Positions 1,128-55,250 are shown, counted from the stretch's first letter. The stretch is 64,000 bases of DNA from an uncultured Planctomycetales bacterium (GCA_964579435.1 CAZOGI010000012.1:5781-69780); one strand, 5' to 3'. Translations and numbers: made by a program. The notes: generated by a model from the sequence alone, not told the origin.

Positions 1128-1673
1128 ATGAAAGAGATCCGTATCCACGCCCGCGCCGGGCAGGGCGCTATCACGACCGCGACGATCCTCGGCCACGCGT
1201 ATTTTCATAAAGGGATGTATCCGTATGCCTTCCCGCACTTTGGGGCAGCGCGCATGGGAGCGCCGATGAACGCATTCGTGAGGGTCGACGAGCGTCCGGT
1301 GCGCCTGCGCAGCCAGATCTACGAGCCGGATTATGTCATTATCCAGGATGCCACGCTCTTGCGCGGCTTCAATTGTTTTTCGGGATTGAAAGAGAAAGGG
1401 GTCGCGATCGTGAATGGCCGGGAAGGGGTCGAGATCCCCAAACTGAAGGCGAACCAGAGGCTGATCGTGGTTCCTGCCAACGAGATCGCGATGCAGACGA
1501 TCGGCAGGCCGTTGGGGAATACCGCGCTCCTGGGTGCCTTTTGCGCCGCGACCGCGGAGTTCGGGCTGGAAGCGCTGGAGGCGGCGATCAAGCAGCGTTT
1601 TTCGGGCAAGGCCCAGGAGGCCAATATCAAAGCCGTTGCGCAGGGATTCGCGTTCGTCAAAGGGAAAAAATAG
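1128..1673 (+). CDS. porG: pyruvate:ferredoxin oxidoreductase gamma subunit
   Basis: The 181-aa protein has the typical PorG N-terminus (IHARAGQGAITTATILGHA) and is the first gene of a por gene order G-D-A-B. Confidence 0.85.
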   Translation: MKEIRIHARAGQGAITTATILGHAYFHKGMYPYAFPHFGAARMGAPMNAFVRVDERPVRLRSQIYEPDYVIIQDATLLRGFNCFSGLKEKGVAIVNGREGVEIPKLKANQRLIVVPANEIAMQTIGRPLGNTALLGAFCAATAEFGLEALEAAIKQRFSGKAQEANIKAVAQGFAFVKGKK

Positions 1674-4809: not shown

Positions 4810-6243
4810 TTAGCGCTGCGCCTGTTCTTTCAGGGCGGTGATGAAGCGCACGAACTGTTCCTGTTTCTTCTGGGCCATCACCTTTTGGGTGAATGCCGGG
4901 AGCTCTTTCTGGAAGACCGCCTGGTCAAAGGCGGTCTTTTCCTTGAGGAGGATGAGGAAGTAGCCGTTGGCGGTGGTGATGATGTCGCTGCAGGCGCCTT
5001 CTTTCAGCGCCTGGGCGTTGAGCCAGAAGATATCCGAGGCGCCGATGCCTTCGATGTAGCTGTCGAAGGAGAATGGTTCGGACTGGGCGGCCTTGAGGCC
5101 GAAAGTCGCGGCGGTTTCCTGGAATTGTTGCGGCGTGGGTCTCTGGCCAAAGTCATCTTTGAATTTCCTGAGGCAGTCCCCGACTTTTGTTTTGGCACGC
5201 TGTGCCGCCTGTTCCTTGCGGTAAGCCTCTTTGACCTGTTCCTGTATCTGTTCCAGCGGCGGGACCGCCGGAGGGATGCGTTCTTTAACCCGAACGATAA
5301 AGAGCTGTTTTTCCGCCTGTATGGGGGGCAGATATTCCCCGTCTTTGGCTTTGAAAAGGAGTGAGGAGATCTGTACCGACCAGCCGATGCCGGGGATGGG
5401 GTCGGTTTCGGCGAAACGCCCGGTTTCTTTGACCTCCAGGCCAAAGGACTGCGCGACCGCGGCGAACGGTTCTTTGCGGCGCACCCGTGAGAGCATCTGT
5501 TTTGCTCGCCGCTGTATCTCTTCCGGCGCGGCGCTGCCTGCGTCGAGGGCGCAGAACTCCAGGTTAAAGGAGAGGGGTTGCTTGAACTCGACCGCATGCT
5601 CCTGGAAATAGGCGCGCAGTTCATCCGGGGAGGGTTCGATCTCGTTGAGGTAATCGGCCATGAGGCCCGCCGCATACCAGATGCTGATCTTCTCGTTGGC
5701 CTTGCGGTATTCCTCCTGTACCTCCTGTTCACTCGCTGAGACGCCTCCGGTGATCTCTTCGAAGAGCTGGGCGATGGCGAGGTTCTGGCGGGTCTGCTCC
5801 TCGAAAGCGCGGGGGCTCAGGCGCAGGTACGTCTGCAGGAACTGGGAATAACGCTGCCGGTCGAATCGCCCCGCGGCGTCGGCAAAGGGCAGGCGCAGGA
5901 TCTCCTGGATGACCGCGCTGTCCTTGACCCGGATGCCGCGCTTGCGCGCCTCCGCCAGCAGGAGCAGCCGTTCCCATGCCTGCGCCTCGAGGAAGAGGCT
6001 CTTTTCCACTTCGGGGAATTTTTCCCCGAAGCGCAGCAGCGCCTGGATGCGTACCGCATCGAGGGAGTCCTTGAATTCAAGCATCGAAATCGAGCGGCCG
6101 AAGATGCGGCCGACCGCGCGCTGGCTGTCGCGGGTACGCACGGCGCTGCCCCCTCCCCAGAAGATGAATGCCGGCACGATGATCGCGGCCAGGGTGATCC
6201 AGATGCGTTTTGCGGTTTTTTTGTTGCGTAAGAACTTAAGCAT
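4810..6243 (-). CDS. periplasmic chaperone PpiD/SurA-N-domain family protein with N-terminal membrane anchor
   Basis: The 477-aa protein has an N-terminal TM segment followed by a SurA_N-like region. The family call rests on overall architecture only. Confidence 0.55.
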   Translation of the reverse strand: MLKFLRNKKTAKRIWITLAAIIVPAFIFWGGGSAVRTRDSQRAVGRIFGRSISMLEFKDSLDAVRIQALLRFGEKFPEVEKSLFLEAQAWERLLLLAEARKRGIRVKDSAVIQEILRLPFADAAGRFDRQRYSQFLQTYLRLSPRAFEEQTRQNLAIAQLFEEITGGVSASEQEVQEEYRKANEKISIWYAAGLMADYLNEIEPSPDELRAYFQEHAVEFKQPLSFNLEFCALDAGSAAPEEIQRRAKQMLSRVRRKEPFAAVAQSFGLEVKETGRFAETDPIPGIGWSVQISSLLFKAKDGEYLPPIQAEKQLFIVRVKERIPPAVPPLEQIQEQVKEAYRKEQAAQRAKTKVGDCLRKFKDDFGQRPTPQQFQETAATFGLKAAQSEPFSFDSYIEGIGASDIFWLNAQALKEGACSDIITTANGYFLILLKEKTAFDQAVFQKELPAFTQKVMAQKKQEQFVRFITALKEQAQR

Positions 6244-11888: not shown

Positions 11889-13148
11889 ATGCCTAAACAC
11901 GAGATAGCCGTCATCATCCTGGCCGCTGGCAAAAGCACCCGCATGAAATCCGCGGTGCCGAAGGTGCTGCATGAGCTCTGCGGCAGGCCGATGCTTTCTT
12001 ATGTCACCGATCTGGCGAAAGCCGTGCGCGCCCGACGCACGATCGTCGTGCTGGGGCACCAGGCCGAAGCGGTCCGGCCCATCGTTCCGGCCGGCGTCGA
12101 GGTGGTGCTGCAGCGCCTGCAGAAAGGCACGGCGCACGCCGTCCGGCAGGCCCTGCCGCGGCTGCGCTCCTTCAGCGGGACGGTGCTGATCCTCTACGGC
12201 GATACGCCGCTGCTGCAGGCAGAGACCGTGAGGCGCCTGGTCCGCAAACACCGCGATTCCGGCGCCGCGGCGACGATCCTTACCGCGAAGCTGCAGAAAC
12301 CCGCCGGCTACGGCAGGATCGTGCGCGACGCCTATCAGTCGATCAGCGAAATCGTCGAGGAAAAAGACGCCGACGATTTCCAGAAAACGATCGATGAGAT
12401 CAATACCGGTTTCGTCTGTTTCCAGAAGGCGGCGTTGCAGAAGGTCCTTTCGGCGGTCAAGACGAATAACCGCAAAGGGGAGTTCTATCTGACCGACTGC
12501 ATCCGGCTGCTGGCCCGCCAGGGCAAGACCATCGCCGGCATGGATATCGGCGACGTCAACGAGGCGCTGGGGATCAATTCGCGCCTGGAGCTGGCCCAGG
12601 CGGCGGCGATCATCCAGCGGCGCATCAACGAGCGCCACATGAAGGCGGGGGTGACGATCGTTGATCCGGCGACTGCCTGGATCGCCTGGGGGGCGCGCAT
12701 CGGCGCGGATACGGTGATTTATCCCTTTACATTTATCGAAAAGGGTGTTAGCATCAAAGGCCGCTGTTCGGTCGGTCCTTTTGCCCGCCTGCGGGAAGGC
12801 ACCCGCCTGGAACAAGAAGTCGTCATCGGCAATTTCCTTGAGATAGTCCGTTCACGGATTTCCCCCCAGAGTCTCGCCAAGCACTTCGGCTATATCGGCG
12901 ACAGCCGCATCGGCCGCCGCGTCAATATCGGCGCCGGTACGGTCACCGCGAATTTCGACGGGAAGGCCAAGAACGAAACGATCATCCGGGACGGCGCCTT
13001 TATCGGTTCGGACAGTGTTCTGGTCGCACCGGTTTTCGTCGGTCGCGGCGCCGTAACGGGCGCGGGCGCGGTCCTGCCCCGGCGCACGCGCGTGCGCGCG
13101 GGAGAGACCGTGGTCGGCGTGCCGGCGCGCCGCTTGCAGAAGGATTAA
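11889..13148 (+). CDS. glmU: bifunctional UDP-N-acetylglucosamine pyrophosphorylase / glucosamine-1-phosphate N-acetyltransferase
   Basis: N-terminal LAAGKSTRM nucleotidyltransferase motif plus a C-terminal left-handed beta-helix hexapeptide region. Confidence 0.9.
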   Translation: MPKHEIAVIILAAGKSTRMKSAVPKVLHELCGRPMLSYVTDLAKAVRARRTIVVLGHQAEAVRPIVPAGVEVVLQRLQKGTAHAVRQALPRLRSFSGTVLILYGDTPLLQAETVRRLVRKHRDSGAAATILTAKLQKPAGYGRIVRDAYQSISEIVEEKDADDFQKTIDEINTGFVCFQKAALQKVLSAVKTNNRKGEFYLTDCIRLLARQGKTIAGMDIGDVNEALGINSRLELAQAAAIIQRRINERHMKAGVTIVDPATAWIAWGARIGADTVIYPFTFIEKGVSIKGRCSVGPFARLREGTRLEQEVVIGNFLEIVRSRISPQSLAKHFGYIGDSRIGRRVNIGAGTVTANFDGKAKNETIIRDGAFIGSDSVLVAPVFVGRGAVTGAGAVLPRRTRVRAGETVVGVPARRLQKD

Positions 13149-26571: not shown

Positions 26572-26664
26572 CCGCCAACCCGAACGCAGTTGAAGGGGTG
26601 GGCACGTTTTTCAATTTTGCGCACCTTGCGCTCATGCGGTATTGCGCAAGTGCGCATTTACTAT

Positions 26665-26690
26665 GCGCCTATAGCTCAATTGGATAGAGC
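26665..26690 (+). pseudogene. tRNA-Arg 5'-half fragment (26 nt identical to the 5' end of the downstream tRNA-Arg, then a variant anticodon-stem strand CCAGC and the shared anticodon loop, then unrelated sequence)
   Basis: gcgcctatagctcaattggatagagc matches at 26665. It cannot form a cloverleaf. Confidence 0.6.
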
Positions 26691-26740
26691 GCCAGCCTTC
26701 GGAACAAATTTGACAAGTTTTGAGATGGTTTTAAGACACT

Positions 26741-28257: not shown

Positions 28258-28406
28258 AAGCATCGTTCTGACCGAGGGAGACCGGCATTGCTTATACTAC
28301 ATGCGGGGGAGGATACTGTTGTTAGCCGAGCGTAAGCCCCAATCCCAAGATTAAGCTTGTTGCTGAGGTGGACGGGTATAGCAAGGACTATCGTGCCACT
28401 TTTTTT

Positions 28407-28420
28407 GCGCCTATAGCTCA
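28407..28420 (+). repeat. 14-nt copy of the tRNA-Arg 5' end (gcgcctatagctca) followed by hairpin gccgc-N9-gcggc
   Basis: Direct sequence match, 59 nt upstream of the next tRNA. Confidence 0.5.
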
Positions 28421-28478
28421 GCCGCGAAATGCTTGCGGCATGATCTACAGGCGTAAGGAATAAAAACGTGTTATTATT

Positions 28479-40342: not shown

Positions 40343-40498
40343 ATGAAATGCCGGGAGTGCGCGTACTATAAGGCTATCGATGAGGAGCGCGGCAGCTGTT
40401 ACGGGGTGCTGATCCGCGGCGATCGCGACCCGCGCACTGAGTCCGACAAGTGCCGAGGAAAATTTTTCAAGCCGCGGGAATCGTCGCGGGGTCAGTGA
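40343..40498 (+). CDS. 51-aa Cys-rich small protein, hypothetical
   Basis: It is not in the track. Translation MKCRECAYYKAIDEERGSCYGVLIRGDRDPRTESDKCRGKFFKPRESSRGQ shows a four-Cys pattern. Confidence 0.35.
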   Translation: MKCRECAYYKAIDEERGSCYGVLIRGDRDPRTESDKCRGKFFKPRESSRGQ

Positions 40499-40669
40499 AG
40501 GAGCGGCTTGAGTAAGGCAACAGAGGCGCGAAATCTCTCTTTACAGTGCCTGCCAAATCTGGTATATTTGTATCCTCTCTTAAGTCTCTGATAGTGCTCC
40601 TCGCAGTATAATGGCAGGTTCTGTATCTGTGCGGAGTAGTTTTCTGACAAGTTATAGCTGGAAAACTTA

Positions 40670-40742
40670 GGGCCATTAGCTCAATTGGTAGAGCAGGACA
40701 CTCTTAATGTCAAGGTCGATGGTTCGACTCCATCATGGCCCA
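40670..40742 (+). tRNA. tRNA-Lys(CTT)
   Basis: Acceptor GGGCCAT/ATGGCCC, D-arm GCTC-AATTGGTA-GAGC, anticodon loop CTCTTAA, T-arm GATGG-TTCGACT-CCATC. Confidence 0.75.
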
Positions 40743-41056
40743 TTTTTTTCCTGCCGGTCGATGGTTCCCCCTCGCGTAAACGCTCCTCAGATCCCTTGAG
40801 GGAGTCTTCGGAGCACGCTTCGGGGTTAATTCGCGCATTTGACTTACGCTCCGTACCGTCGCGTAAGTCAAGCGCTCATTAAGACTCCATCATGGCCCAT
40901 TTTTTTCCTGCCGGTCGATGGTTCCCCCTCGCGTAAACGCTCCTCAGATCCCTTGAGGGAGTCTTCGGAGCACGCTTCGGGGTTAATTCGCGCATTTGAC
41001 TTACGCTCCGTACCGTCGCGTAAGTCAAGCGCTCATTAAGACTCCATCATGGCCCA
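40743..41056 (+). repeat. two tandem 157-bp direct repeats, each ending with the exact 17-nt 3' terminus of tRNA-Lys (gactccatcatggccca). att-site-like duplications or a structured small-RNA repeat.
   Basis: Units 40743..40899 and 40900..41056 are identical by eye. Each contains a ~15-bp hairpin (gcgcatttgacttacgc...gcgtaagtcaagcgc) and begins with a T-run plus a ggtcgatggttc tRNA-like segment. Confidence 0.8.
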
Positions 41057-41194
41057 TTTTCATTTTCCCGCCTTCGCAAGCGCTTCCCTCTTGCTTTATT
41101 TCCTCGGTAAATAGCCGTATAATACCAGTGGGAGTGTAGAGCCAGGAGCTTGGAATTGAGACTTCCTACTCCTCACCCCAAACTCCAGACTAAA

Positions 41195-41617
41195 ATGACC
41201 GCCCTGCCGTACCAACTCTTAGACCATACCGCCGATATCCGCGTCAGGATAACTGCCGCGACGCTCAAAGAGCTTTTTATAAAAGCGGCAGACGCACTTT
41301 TCGATATTGCGGCACAGCCCCGGACGCCCCGTATCAAAGCGCAGACTCGCGTTACCGTGTCTCTGGAGGCGGCTGAGACCGATGAGCTGTTTGTCGCCTG
41401 GCTCAATGAACTCATTTCTCTCGCGGCGGTGCGCGGGCTTGTTTTTACCCGCTTTCACCTGAACCGCTTTTCCCCTCAGGGTCTCAAGGCTCTTGTCTAC
41501 GGCGCGCCCGTGGCGTCTTTTGAGGTCAAAACCGAGATCAAGGCAGCGACGTTCCACTCTTTGAACGTCAGTAAACAAAAAAGCGGCTGGATCGCCGAAG
41601 TGATCTTCGATACATGA
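41195..41617 (+). CDS. archease (RtcB activator)
   Basis: DHTADIRV motif near the N-terminus; 140 aa; directly upstream of rtcB. Confidence 0.75.
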   Translation: MTALPYQLLDHTADIRVRITAATLKELFIKAADALFDIAAQPRTPRIKAQTRVTVSLEAAETDELFVAWLNELISLAAVRGLVFTRFHLNRFSPQGLKALVYGAPVASFEVKTEIKAATFHSLNVSKQKSGWIAEVIFDT

Positions 41618-43080
41618 AGGCAAAGGATATGTCAGAGATAAAGCTCGAGAAGATCGACGACTACCGCTGGCGTATTCCCAGAAACGCCTTTCCCGGCATG
41701 CGCGTCCCGGGGATCGTCTACGCCGACGAAAAACTGCTCAAGGATATCGCCCGGGATAAAGCGCTCGAGCAGGTGGCCAACGTCGCTTTTCTTCCCGGTA
41801 TCGTCGGCGCTTCCCTGGCCATGCCGGATGTGCACTGGGGATACGGTTTCCCGATCGGCGGCGTGGCGGCGACCGATATCTCCGAAGGAGGGGTGGTTTC
41901 GCCGGGCGGGGTGGGTTTTGACATAAATTGCGGCATCAGGATGCTGCGCACCAACCTGATGCTCGACGACGTCCGGCCGCGCCTGCAGGAACTGGTCTAT
42001 GCGCTCTTTTCCGGCATCCCCTCAGGCGTCGGTTCCAAGGGCGACATAAAACTGACCTGCCGAGAGCAAAAACAGATGCTGGTCAAAGGCGCCGGCTGGG
42101 CGGTTGCCCGGGGGTACGGCACCGAAGACGATCTTGAGTGCACCGAGGAACGCGGCGCCATCGCCGGGGCAGATCCGGATGCAGTCTCCGAGCGCGCGCT
42201 CGAGCGCGGGAAAGCCCAGTCCGGGACCCTGGGTTCGGGCAACCATTTCCTCGAGGTGCAGGTCATCGAGCAGCTCTATGCCCGCGACGCCTGCGACGCG
42301 CTGCATCTGGATGAAGGCCAGATCGTGGTGATGATCCACTCCGGCTCGCGGGGGTTCGGGTATCAGGTCTGCGACGAATCGGTGCGCTCGATGCTCTCCT
42401 GTCTTTCCAAATACCGCATCTGCGTGCCGGACCGTCAGCTTGCCTGTGCCCCGGTTGATTCCCCGGAAGGCCGGGCATATCTGGGAGCAATGCGCTGCGC
42501 CGCCAATTACGCCTGGGCAAACCGGCAGTGCCTGATGCACTTGACGCGCCAGGTTTTTGAGCGGGTCTTCGGCGCTTCCTGGGAAAAGCTGGGGATGTAT
42601 CTTATCTACGACGTTGCCCACAATATCGCCAAGGTAGAGACGCATTCGGTAGGCGGCGTTGAGAGAAAACTCTGCGTCCACCGCAAAGGCGCCACGCGTG
42701 CCTTCGGCCCCGGCCACCCGGCGCTTCCCGAGCGGTACCGGCCCCTGGGCCAGCCGGTGATCATTCCCGGGGATATGGGACGCAATTCGTATCTTCTGCT
42801 GGGCACGCAGCGCTCGATGGAGGAGACCTTCGGCAGCGCCTGTCACGGCGCCGGCAGGGTCAAATCCCGGACCGCAGCGACCCGTTCCATCGATCCACAT
42901 GCTTTGTTGAAAGAACTCGAATCAAAAGGTATAATAGTGAAAGCCTCGGGCCGCGGGACGCTCGTTGAAGAGGCGCCCAGCGCCTATAAAGACGTCAACG
43001 ACGTCGTCTCGGTCGTCCATGACGCGGGAATAGCGCGCCGCGTCTGCAGGATGCGCCCGCTGGGCGTCATTAAAGGTTGA
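41614..43080 (+). CDS. rtcB: RNA 3'-phosphate/2',3'-cyclic phosphate ligase RtcB
   Basis: The 488-aa protein has the conserved His/Cys metal ligands (GSGNHFLEV, HSGSRG, CHGAGR). Confidence 0.85.
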   Translation: MKAKDMSEIKLEKIDDYRWRIPRNAFPGMRVPGIVYADEKLLKDIARDKALEQVANVAFLPGIVGASLAMPDVHWGYGFPIGGVAATDISEGGVVSPGGVGFDINCGIRMLRTNLMLDDVRPRLQELVYALFSGIPSGVGSKGDIKLTCREQKQMLVKGAGWAVARGYGTEDDLECTEERGAIAGADPDAVSERALERGKAQSGTLGSGNHFLEVQVIEQLYARDACDALHLDEGQIVVMIHSGSRGFGYQVCDESVRSMLSCLSKYRICVPDRQLACAPVDSPEGRAYLGAMRCAANYAWANRQCLMHLTRQVFERVFGASWEKLGMYLIYDVAHNIAKVETHSVGGVERKLCVHRKGATRAFGPGHPALPERYRPLGQPVIIPGDMGRNSYLLLGTQRSMEETFGSACHGAGRVKSRTAATRSIDPHALLKELESKGIIVKASGRGTLVEEAPSAYKDVNDVVSVVHDAGIARRVCRMRPLGVIKG

Positions 43081-46249: not shown

Positions 46250-46288
46250 TCGCTGGCTTCGGGACGAATTTGCTGAAGAGAGAGAGCG
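46250..46288 (+). repeat. 39-nt direct repeat, copy 1 (copy 2 at 46664..46702, immediately upstream of tRNA-Ser)
   Basis: tcgctggcttcgggacgaatttgctgaag[a/t]gagagagcg occurs twice, 414 nt apart. Confidence 0.7.
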
Positions 46289-46381
46289 TTTGTCCCGACT
46301 TATAAGCAATGCCAAAATTCTCTGCGATAATTTTGGCATATGCGTCGGGATTTCGCTGGATTTTCTTGTTTGTGTGCTCAA

Positions 46382-46399
46382 GGTGGGGTGGCAGAGCGG
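46382..46399 (+). pseudogene. 18-nt fragment identical to the 5' end of tRNA-Ser (ggtggggtggcagagcgg)
   Basis: Exact match to 46710..46727; no cloverleaf follows. Confidence 0.6.
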
Positions 46400-46426
46400 C
46401 GACCGAGTGTTTACCCGTTTTTATGC

Positions 46427-46566
46427 AGGTGAGCACGAAGGAGTCCTGCGAGAAACTAGGTGGTTTTACCCGGACGAGCAGGACCAAGAGTGCGTGCCCG
46501 GGAAAATATAGGTGAGCACGAGGGAGTCCTGCGAGAAACTAGGTGGTTTTACCCGGACGAGCAGGA
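46427..46566 (+). repeat. two copies of a 57-nt direct repeat (46427..46483 and 46510..46566, one mismatch) containing stem gtcctgc...gcaggac
   Basis: aggtgagcacga[a/g]ggagtcctgcgagaaactaggtggttttacccggacgagcagga occurs twice with an 83-nt period. Confidence 0.75.
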
Positions 46567-46663
46567 TCGAATGCATCAAGGCGATGCCACCGGGCGGGTG
46601 AGATTGATTTTGGTCCCTCGCCAAAGCGCTCGTGCAATTTCAGGGATGCCGTGAAATTGCACA

Positions 46664-46702
46664 TCGCTGGCTTCGGGACGAATTTGCTGAAGTAAGAGAG
46701 CG
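46664..46702 (+). repeat. 39-nt direct repeat, copy 2, preceded by near-perfect hairpin gtgcaatttcag-N7-gtgaaattgcac
   Basis: See copy 1. Confidence 0.7.
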
Positions 46703-46709
46703 AAATTCG

Positions 46710-46800
46710 GGTGGGGTGGCAGAGCGGTCGAATGCGGCAGTCTTGAAAACTGTTGTCCCGCTTCGCGGGACCGTGAGTTCGAATCTCACCCCCACCGCCA
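46710..46800 (+). tRNA. tRNA-Ser(TGA), class II with long variable arm, CCA encoded
   Basis: Acceptor GGTGGGG/CCCCACC, anticodon loop CTTGAAA, variable arm GTCCCG-cttc-CGGGAC, T-arm GTGAG-TTCGAAT-CTCAC, discriminator G. Confidence 0.8.
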
Positions 46801-55130: not shown

Positions 55131-55250
55131 CAAAGACTAATCTTCGGGGAAGGGTGAAATTCCCGACCGGCGGTAAAGCCCGCGAGCCTTTCCAAGTGAA
55201 GGCAGATCCGGCGAGATTCCGGAGCCGATGGTGCCGCAGAAAGCTGCACA
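55131..55250 (+). promoter_or_regulatory. FMN riboswitch (RFN element) aptamer
   Basis: CTTCGGGGAAGGGTGAAATTCCCGACCGGCGGTAAAGCCCGCGAGC...CCGGCGAGATTCCGGAGCCGA matches the RFN consensus core. It lies upstream of ribBA. Confidence 0.85.

Follow-up and report, generated by a model that had tools for sequence, protein, structure and literature searches.

MITEs (miniature inverted-repeat transposable elements) include the 'Tourist-like' elements of the IS5 and PIF-Harbinger type with a 3-bp TWA/TAA duplication as well as bacterial foldback elements, e.g. the Correia elements of Neisseria. Repetitive extragenic palindromes (REPs) with the related bacterial interspersed mosaic elements (BIMEs) and REP doublets forming hairpins (REPINs) are mobilised by REP-associated tyrosine transposases (RAYTs) of the Y1/HUH type. 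Two reviews of these repeats (PMC2817692, PMC3184786) describe them as extragenic imperfect palindromes that are paired in alternating orientation. At tRNA genes, the classical signature of integration into tRNA-encoding DNA (tDNA) is an intact tRNA accompanied by a same-orientation 3' fragment, displaced and beginning within the T-loop; attP sites in the T-stem region are the commonest class and tandem arrays are known (PMC4383910). These systems are compared here with a tRNA-Lys locus within 64,000 nucleotides of DNA recorded from an uncultured Planctomycetales bacterium (GCA_964579435.1, CAZOGI010000012.1:5781-69780; the window), where two tandem 157-bp units follow the tRNA gene. The 115-nt insert in each unit was shown to belong, at full length, to a family of dispersed two-hairpin repeats with many copies in Omnitrophota. 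The locus looks like a composite scar that selfish repeat DNA left beside a tRNA, without an island or a new RNA gene.

The intact tRNA-Lys(CTT) was located at 40670-40742 on the plus strand (ARAGORN; Rfam RF00005, 69.1 bits), as are all further features of the array. Its last 17 nt (GACTCCATCATGGCCCA, 40726-40742) cover tRNA positions 57-73, namely, the 3' part of the T-loop, the 3' arm of the T-stem, the 3' strand of the acceptor and the discriminator. In agreement with the original prediction, this 17-mer recurs exactly at 40883-40899 and 41040-41056, and these are its only three sites in the 64 kb. Tandem Repeats Finder returned a single array (40726-41060) with a period of 157, 2.1 copies, 100% matches and no indels. 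A repeat search likewise gave the units 40726-40882 and 40883-41039 as 100% identical, so that the two perfect tandem repeats claimed for the region after tRNA-Lys hold base by base.

Read from the end of the tRNA, each unit consists of a 13-nt trailer, a 12-mer (tRNA positions 45-56), the 115-nt insert and the 17-mer (positions 57-73). The sequence of the first unit, read directly, opens with the trailer TTTTTTTCCTGCC (40743-40755) and continues with GGTCGATGGTTC (40756-40767), which is an exact copy of tRNA positions 45-56 and spans the variable loop, the 5' arm of the T-stem and the first three nucleotides of the T-loop. A unit start of this kind (T7, CCTGCC and GGTCGATGGTTC) had been correctly recognised as copying the tRNA. 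The insert, termed E1, follows at 40768-40882 in a single-arm form (full-length alignment; nhmmer E = 5e-16). With perfect 157-bp periodicity, the second unit carries the trailer copy at 40900-40912, the copy of tRNA positions 45-56 at 40913-40924 and an identical E1 copy at 40925-41039 (Tandem Repeats Finder, repeat search and nhmmer). After the third 17-mer, the native trailer and the archease 5' region extend from 41057 to 41194, and the native trailer TTTTCATTTTCCCGCC (41057-41072) resembles that of the units. The tRNA-derived pieces of a unit make up a 29-nt copy of the 3' part of tRNA-Lys (positions 45-73), which starts 13 nt after the end of the intact tRNA. The break in this copy falls precisely between positions 56 and 57 of the T-loop (TTC/GAC) with neither a target duplication nor the loss of a nucleotide. 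Two open reading frames (ORFs) annotated here, 40685-40882 and 40839-41039 (65-66 aa), have TTG starts that fall in the tRNA gene or the repeat, and both extend over the repeat; they had rightly been regarded as artefacts.

Relatives were taken from the best 80 RtcB-encoding loci among species-representative genomes, nearly all of them Omnitrophota metagenome-assembled genomes (MAGs) with identities of at most 79%. By this sequence comparison, the organism of the window is placed in Candidatus Omnitrophota, an uncultivated phylum of mostly ultra-small cells. BLAST of the unit against the 80 RtcB loci gave repeated weak matches to the 3' hairpin at many unrelated positions, an nhmmer profile detected 17 element copies in the same loci and a degenerate pattern for the 3' half of the hairpin matched at least 120 metagenome stretches. 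In total, at least 224 element copies were present in a set of 201 sequences (1.56 Mb; cited below by L numbers), which comprises the window, loci from Omnitrophota MAGs and metagenome contigs without a label, with up to five copies per contig; all family counts are among the matches listed. The 115 nt of the window align from the first to the last base with 15 other full elements. Most of the copies adjoin protein-coding genes and not tRNAs. Since this dispersed repeat, mostly found beside protein genes, accounts for 115 of the 157 bp, the reading of the unit as a feature of tRNA-Lys has largely given way to that of a REP- or MITE-like repeat.

The Rfam scan of the whole window at gathering thresholds yielded tRNAs and known riboswitches only, and within 40500-41250 the tRNA alone scored at E-values up to 10. 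Element copies of L020 and L005 gave no Rfam match at E up to 1. The exact pattern of GGTCGATGGTTC, 100-130 nt and the 17-mer had no match in genome contigs and metagenome contigs, and exact-protein look-ups for the archease and RtcB of the window returned no record. In a literature search of limited coverage, no description of Omnitrophota repeats or of this family was found, and the family appears to be undescribed so far. Two further motif leads within the window were dropped: the sole other match to the GGGRTWAATTY box, at 12570, lies inside apparent coding sequence, and for GCTTCGGGR, which occurs 11 times at 2.8 expected, the extra sites read (57.6 kb and 61.3 kb) resemble coding sequence.

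The element of the window folds into P0 (CCCC/GGGG), a P1 hairpin with an AAAC internal loop, a GGGGTTAATTC box and the long hairpin P2, which in the first copy occupies 40826-40882 on the plus strand and ends with CTCATTAA. A perfect hairpin of ~15 bp had been proposed; hairpins are present, but the perfect stretch measures 11 bp (TTGACTTACGC/GCGTAAGTCAA). It gains 4 bp (GCGC) past a 2-nt bulge and 5 bp more past a UC/UC internal loop. The same architecture was observed throughout the family. P0 (CCC/GGG) encloses P1a (GCCU/AGGC type); next are an internal loop of the AAAC type and a stem-loop that varies, and the GGGATWAATTC box precedes P2 with its 5-bp outer stem, UC/UC internal loop, GCGC, 2-nt bulge and 10-bp stem centred on ACTTACG/CGTAAGT under a variable apex. 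The element closes with CTCATTWA, and its conserved ends are TAAGTGAGG... and ...GCTCATTWA. In P2, 19 pairs were evaluated over 76 sequences and 97.2% of the cells were paired, compared to only 23-43% in slid controls. Compensatory changes were found in 10 of the 19 pairs (162 cells), which none of 500 shuffles reached. P0 and P1a of the consensus fold showed compensatory changes as well.

Family members have two types of ends, A (...GCTCATTWA) and B (...GTCCTCACTTA). Approx. 50 inverted pairs of hairpins, 0-130 nt apart, share a central P1 and form composites of 143-288 nt with ends resembling terminal inverted repeats (TIRs), TAAGTGAGGAC... and ...GCGCTCATTTA. The imperfect TIRs are confined to the composites, and the copy of the window is a single-arm form without the left arm. 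Composites open with TAA and close with TAA or TTA. Of 31 oriented composites, 12 provide the upstream gene with its stop codon through their first TAA and three more have a TGA at +5 to +7. In 27 of the 31, no more than 40 nt, mostly 0-3 nt, separate the A end from the next start codon. Examples of composites wedged in this way between stop and start, with the A end facing the downstream gene, are L197 3004-3179 and L151 1256-1422 (from L081-L200). The A end was followed within 60 nt by the start of a long same-strand ORF in 103 of 162 copies (63 of them at -1 to +3 and ~25 at 10-15 nt, typically behind AGGAGG), the B end in 4 of 37.

None of the copies contains a large ORF or is fused to one. 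An autonomous parent was not found among the minus/plus pairs of adjacent hairpins, 55 in all; this search did not extend to complete genomes. Fifty of these pairs are at most 130 nt apart and the five wider gaps span 873-4117 nt; the 873-nt gap between outward-facing hairpins of L143, the only wide gap inspected, holds ordinary genes. In the simplest reading, the element is non-autonomous, inserts at TAA/TWA, possibly duplicating it, and survives mainly in the tiny stop/start junctions of compact operons. As neither a transposase or autonomous copy nor an Rfam match or literature description was found, the repeat is best called a new MITE/REP-like family.

Layouts comparable to that of the window occur at other tRNA genes. 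The order of intact tRNA, hairpin element and exact tRNA 3' fragment is equivalent in L023, L181, L022, L133, L035 and L076. In L023, an intact tRNA-Lys is followed after ~120 nt by GGTTC, the element and GATTCCAAGGCGGCTCA, an 18-nt 3' fragment. These flanks match the tRNA-Lys of L023 itself, whose 3' 17-mer differs from that of the window at several positions. L181 carries tRNA-Gly(TCC), a degenerate second 3' half, a P2 hairpin and an exact 3' fragment of 31 nt, and in L051 the element separates the intact tRNA-Arg from an 18-nt copy of its 5' end. A related element ending ...ATTTCGCTA-N-TTGTGGTGCTC precedes fragments of tRNA-Lys and tRNA-Met that run from the T-loop to the 3' end (L022 and L133), and another ending ...GAGCGACG precedes 3' fragments of tRNA-Lys and tRNA-Arg (L035 and L076). 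The A end adjoins the tRNA 3' end, inverted, in L005, L020, L070, L141 and L198 and the 5' end of tRNA-Pro in L158.

A scan of all tRNAs in the loci revealed that exact partial copies are widespread. The 5' copies comprise tRNA positions 1 to 13-18 at 46-60 nt upstream of tRNA-Lys, tRNA-Arg and tRNA-Met and are longer upstream of tRNA-Ser; the 3' copies start at tRNA positions 44-61. The window itself has tRNA fragments at both tRNA-Arg genes and at tRNA-Ser, with 5' copies at 26664-26705 and 28406-28421. Loci with 5' copies are, among others, L005, L008, L014, L016, L019, L029, L030, L035, L037, L051, L061, L065, L067 and L071. Each copy tracks the local tRNA sequence, sometimes includes the leader (the one in L005 measures 30 nt) and is typically followed by a variable hairpin and the conserved motif (G)GATTTCGCTA. 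The copies may stem from repeated insertion, from gene conversion or from a leader feature that is inherited vertically.

The region upstream of tRNA-Ser(TGA) in the window (46253-46710) presents the same theme as the tRNA-Lys locus. A hairpin module ending GGGATTTCGCT...TTGTGTGCTCAA adjoins an 18-nt 5' copy of tRNA-Ser (46382-46399), and an 83-nt tandem repeat (46405-46566, 86% identity) as well as a 28-nt direct repeat (GCTGGCTTCGGGACGAATTTGCTGAAG at 46253 and 46667) are located there. In L051, a masked run of N (5334-5430) lies between tandem tRNA-Lys(CTT) genes, the second of which is preceded by a module of a hairpin and GGATTTCGCTA.

The tRNA-Lys locus of the window is attributed, with a probability of roughly 60%, to duplication of a 3' piece of the tRNA, insertion of the element in the T-loop and a recent tandem amplification. 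The first step would be a local duplication of the 3' end of tRNA-Lys or of the whole gene, one copy of which later decayed. Whole-gene tandem duplication does occur in Omnitrophota, as L051 carries two tandem tRNA-Lys genes. The element would then have landed in the T-loop of the redundant tRNA copy. Finally, the 157-bp block of trailer, 12-mer, element and 17-mer would have been amplified in tandem by unequal recombination or replication slippage between 21-nt direct repeats (17-mer and TTTT), possibly aided by the strong hairpins. This amplification would be very recent, given that the two units are 100% identical. The locus probably has no dedicated function; its main effect would be to separate tRNA-Lys and archease-rtcB, nearly contiguous in most relatives, by ~310 nt of sequence that folds strongly.

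Several points weigh against this origin. While the parts of the locus are identified, the order of events and the mechanism are inferred and were not observed. No transposase was found beside the element copies inspected. The T-loop junctions of the window and L023 have neither TAA nor a target duplication, unlike the TAA...TAA composites, and thus do not represent a canonical insertion of the composite kind. Moreover, the same T-loop site TTC/GA was used in two distant genomes and 3' fragments begin at positions 57-61 in five loci, which points to a site preference or a coupled mechanism and not to chance insertion into a duplicate already present. Trailers of 13-16 nt differ, in contrast to the 100% identity of the tRNA-derived pieces with the tRNA; gene conversion, selection or a coincidental similarity of the trailers could account for this. 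The lineage is known from one genome, and the nearest archease besides that of the source itself is 53% identical.

The neighbouring genes on the plus strand are archease (41195-41617, Pfam PF01951) and rtcB (41614-43080, PF01139). The original prediction had considered that an element boundary or cargo might reach into them. The gene order tRNA-Arg(TCG), tRNA-Lys(CTT), archease, RtcB, SerRS and, further on, tRNA-Ser is conserved across Omnitrophota (L001-L080; 26740-46800 in the window). The spacer between tRNA-Lys and archease is at most 43 nt in 36 of 57 measured spacers, usually 6-43 nt, and is long only where hairpin elements or duplications sit, as in the window with 452 nt. Owing to the conserved order and the short spacers, archease-rtcB is an ancestral neighbour of tRNA-Lys between which and the tRNA the repeats intrude, and a role as cargo is discarded. 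The usual spacer of 6-43 nt also suggests that tRNA-Lys is co-transcribed with the RNA-ligase operon.

Some further features were observed in this region and beyond. Just upstream of tRNA-Lys and after a long G-run, a 51-aa Cys-rich ORF (40343-40498; MKCRECAYYKAIDEERGSCYGV...CRGKFF...) was found without a Pfam match. In the Omnitrophota MAG of L020, a c-di-GMP-I (cyclic diguanylate) riboswitch (1326-1420, minus strand, 71 bits) is located between tRNA-Arg and tRNA-Lys. At 55136-55248, the window contains a flavin mononucleotide (FMN) riboswitch (79 bits) followed by three perfect 41-nt tandem units (region to 55363). Each unit forms a hairpin (TGAGCC-ATCCTTTT-GGCTCA), and the array looks as if the hairpin of an expression platform or terminator had been triplicated.

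A miniature or decayed integrative element is an unlikely source of the array. The 157-bp unit would in this case be, or derive from, a small circle with a T-loop-type attP (tRNA positions 45-73) that was integrated twice by a tyrosine integrase acting in trans; the 17-mers would be att cores and the hairpin element part of the arms. The intact, regenerated tRNA-Lys with its same-strand, 100% identical 17-mers at 40883 and 41040 does match the signature of tDNA islands and the commonest, T-stem class of attP (PMC4383910), and the block of identity reaches from the T-loop to the discriminator base. L022 reads tRNA core, X'-Y-element, core and ancestral trailer, as expected from core-by-core recombination of a small circle, and the tRNAs for Lys, Arg, Met and Gly all provide cases of 3' fragments with a start in the T-loop. 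From the proposed footprint of integration and excision, the tRNA with its displaced T-loop 3' fragment is thus retained, but room for an integrase, cargo, a distal repeat and an island are lacking. Among the ten largest ORFs of 36.8-46.2 kb, Pfam identified no integrase flanking the repeats or lying between them; the neighbours identified were an amidohydrolase, two proteins without a Pfam match, archease, RtcB and SerRS. A fourth 17-mer that might mark the suggested distal attR was absent from the 64 kb with up to two mismatches (chance expectation 0), and the GC content is flat (0.55-0.63) without a compositional island. The unit comprises only 157 bp, and the interval between the 17-mer of the tRNA and the next copy is only 140 nt and not kilobases, with no ORFs there other than the two TTG artefacts. 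The arrangement of 12-mer, element and 17-mer splits the attR-like 29-mer at the presumed crossover. Furthermore, a tRNA-specific integrase does not explain a family that lies mostly off tRNAs at stop/start junctions. Fragments of the 5' end are very common here, as common as 3' fragments in the Omnitrophota loci, in contrast to their rarity for integrases (159 of 3919 islands, PMC4383910).

A functional RNA is quite improbable. The element, with or without its tRNA-like flanks, would be a transcribed structured RNA, for instance a leader or a module for processing, and would share a transcript with tRNA-Lys and archease-rtcB. The halves of the T-stem would close it, the acceptor 3' strand and the U-run would form a tRNA-like end and the duplication would double the dose. 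The strong covariation in P0, P1 and P2 is in favour of such an RNA, as is the fold of the unit on the plus strand (z = -4.5); yet the minus strand folds better with -71.2 kcal/mol (z = -6.7). The pairs of the family are 96% Watson-Crick, as in DNA palindromes. G-U exceeds A-C mildly in the sense strand (13 vs 5), a difference too weak to decide on the strand. What follows the A end in sense orientation is AGGAGG with ATG, only ATG or the 5' end of a tRNA (L158), but inverted copies adjoin tRNA 3' ends in the five loci named above and neither unit of the window precedes a gene start. The tRNA-derived flanks are still 100% identical to the tRNA; however, the acceptor 5' strand is missing, which leaves no minihelix of the RNase P or CCA type, and the 5' half of the T-stem is not kept in L023. 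The units match no Rfam family, and no promoter or terminator was predicted within them. What can be kept of the structured RNA gene with a tRNA-like end that had been offered as an alternative is a conserved structured core with covariation, but not the remainder. Three related candidates were rejected. An outward promoter (TTGACA in P1, then TTTAAT) is present in a subset of copies only and none was predicted in the units of the window. A self-cleaving ribozyme as RtcB substrate was not supported by a hammerhead-like core on visual inspection or by an Rfam match. For a Y RNA or YrlA-like RNA beside RtcB, neither an Rfam match nor an Rsr/TROVE gene was found among the neighbours tested.

It is similarly doubtful that E1 and its relatives (ends ...GCTCA[A/T][A/T]) belong to an undescribed mobile system with a recombinase that acts on folded single-stranded DNA hairpins and also accepts tRNA genes. 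Its targets would be the T-loop, the D-loop and the exact ends of tRNA genes, and each event would leave an intact tRNA and an exact end fragment. Such a recombinase would explain the widespread partial 5' and 3' copies and the shared TTC/GA site in distant genomes. It would also explain fragment boundaries directly after ...AGCTCA, which is akin to the terminus of the element itself. The two units of the window would then stem from two rounds of the event and not from passive slippage.

The copy number of the unit was compared with a contig of the Logan assembly, which uses k = 31 and hence k-1 = 30. The contig from Sequence Read Archive run SRR12133403 (L201) is 100% identical to the window and matches from 41031 onwards. 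It ends exactly 30 nt before the paths from unit to unit and from unit to archease diverge. Because it stops at the 30-mer GCTCATTAAGACTCCATCATGGCCCATTTT, both continuations, TTTCCTGCC and CATTTTCCC, are expected in the reads, and this supports either at least two units in the reads or a population of mixed copy number. An assembly artefact, in which one real unit was doubled by an assembler circling the repeat twice, would agree with the perfect identity of the units and a source that is probably a metagenome-assembled contig, but is very improbable as a single unit would give the 30-mer one continuation only.

For annotation, it follows that the two ORFs on the repeat are artefacts, that there is no island and that archease-rtcB is not cargo. 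The repeat family of Omnitrophota is apparently undescribed, abundant, structurally conserved and recurrent beside tRNA-end fragments. Repeats of this kind can lead to excess ORF calls, broken assemblies and disturbed expression of operons, and they are useful as strain-typing markers. Should their association with tRNA loops stem from the way in which they insert, they would represent a new kind of small, tRNA-targeting mobile element. The locus itself is probably a neutral scar; the family and its association with tRNA-end fragments merit a genome-wide study.

In comparison with known systems, the element resembles integron attC sites in its imperfect hairpin with a short outer stem, an unpaired UC/UC spacer, an extrahelical bulge and a variable apical loop, and in its location directly upstream of the next ORF. 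However, the RYYYAAC/GTTRRRY cores are absent and the respective positions vary (GAC/GTC, GGC/GTC, AAT/ATT). The neighbours are housekeeping genes in conserved synteny, without cassette arrays, and no IntI was seen. Palindrome-associated transposable elements (PATEs) of the IS200/IS605 type and TnpB omega-RNAs are likewise hairpin-rich and ~115 nt in length, and the insertion into the T-loop without target duplication is similar, as is the order of a scaffold and ~17 nt of flanking sequence in omega-RNAs. In contrast to these, the 5' flanks contain no conserved target motif (TGT, TAT, AAT, TTA, TTG, TTC and others), no TnpA, TnpB or IscB ORF lies beside the copies inspected and the intact 'target' (GGTTC and the 17-mer) persists 140 nt away in the window.

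With the REP, BIME and REPIN sequences, as described in the reviews cited above, the family shares hairpin palindromes, high copy number, extragenic location and alternating pairs with a linker. It differs from REPs in the length of the hairpin (~60 nt vs 20-40 nt) and in the conserved flanks GGGATWAATTC and CTCATTWA in place of a 5' GTAG tetranucleotide. The elements of Omnitrophota are, in addition, wedged exactly between stop and start codons. No RAYT gene was noticed, without a screen of the locus ORFs for Pfam Y1_Tnp or a scan of a complete Omnitrophota genome. Compared to MITEs, neither a parent insertion sequence nor a transposase was found for the Omnitrophota element, and each arm is itself a hairpin of ~60 nt with a conserved bulge and internal loop. 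The single-arm form, as in the window, is common, the orientation is strongly biased towards the downstream start codon and the junctions in T-loops and D-loops lack TAA and a target duplication. On the other hand, the family has in common with MITEs that it is non-autonomous, non-coding and 115-290 nt long, that many copies are dispersed between genes and close to gene starts and that its composites carry the imperfect TIRs TAAGTGAGGAC/GCGCTCATTTA within TAA...TAA/TTA limits.

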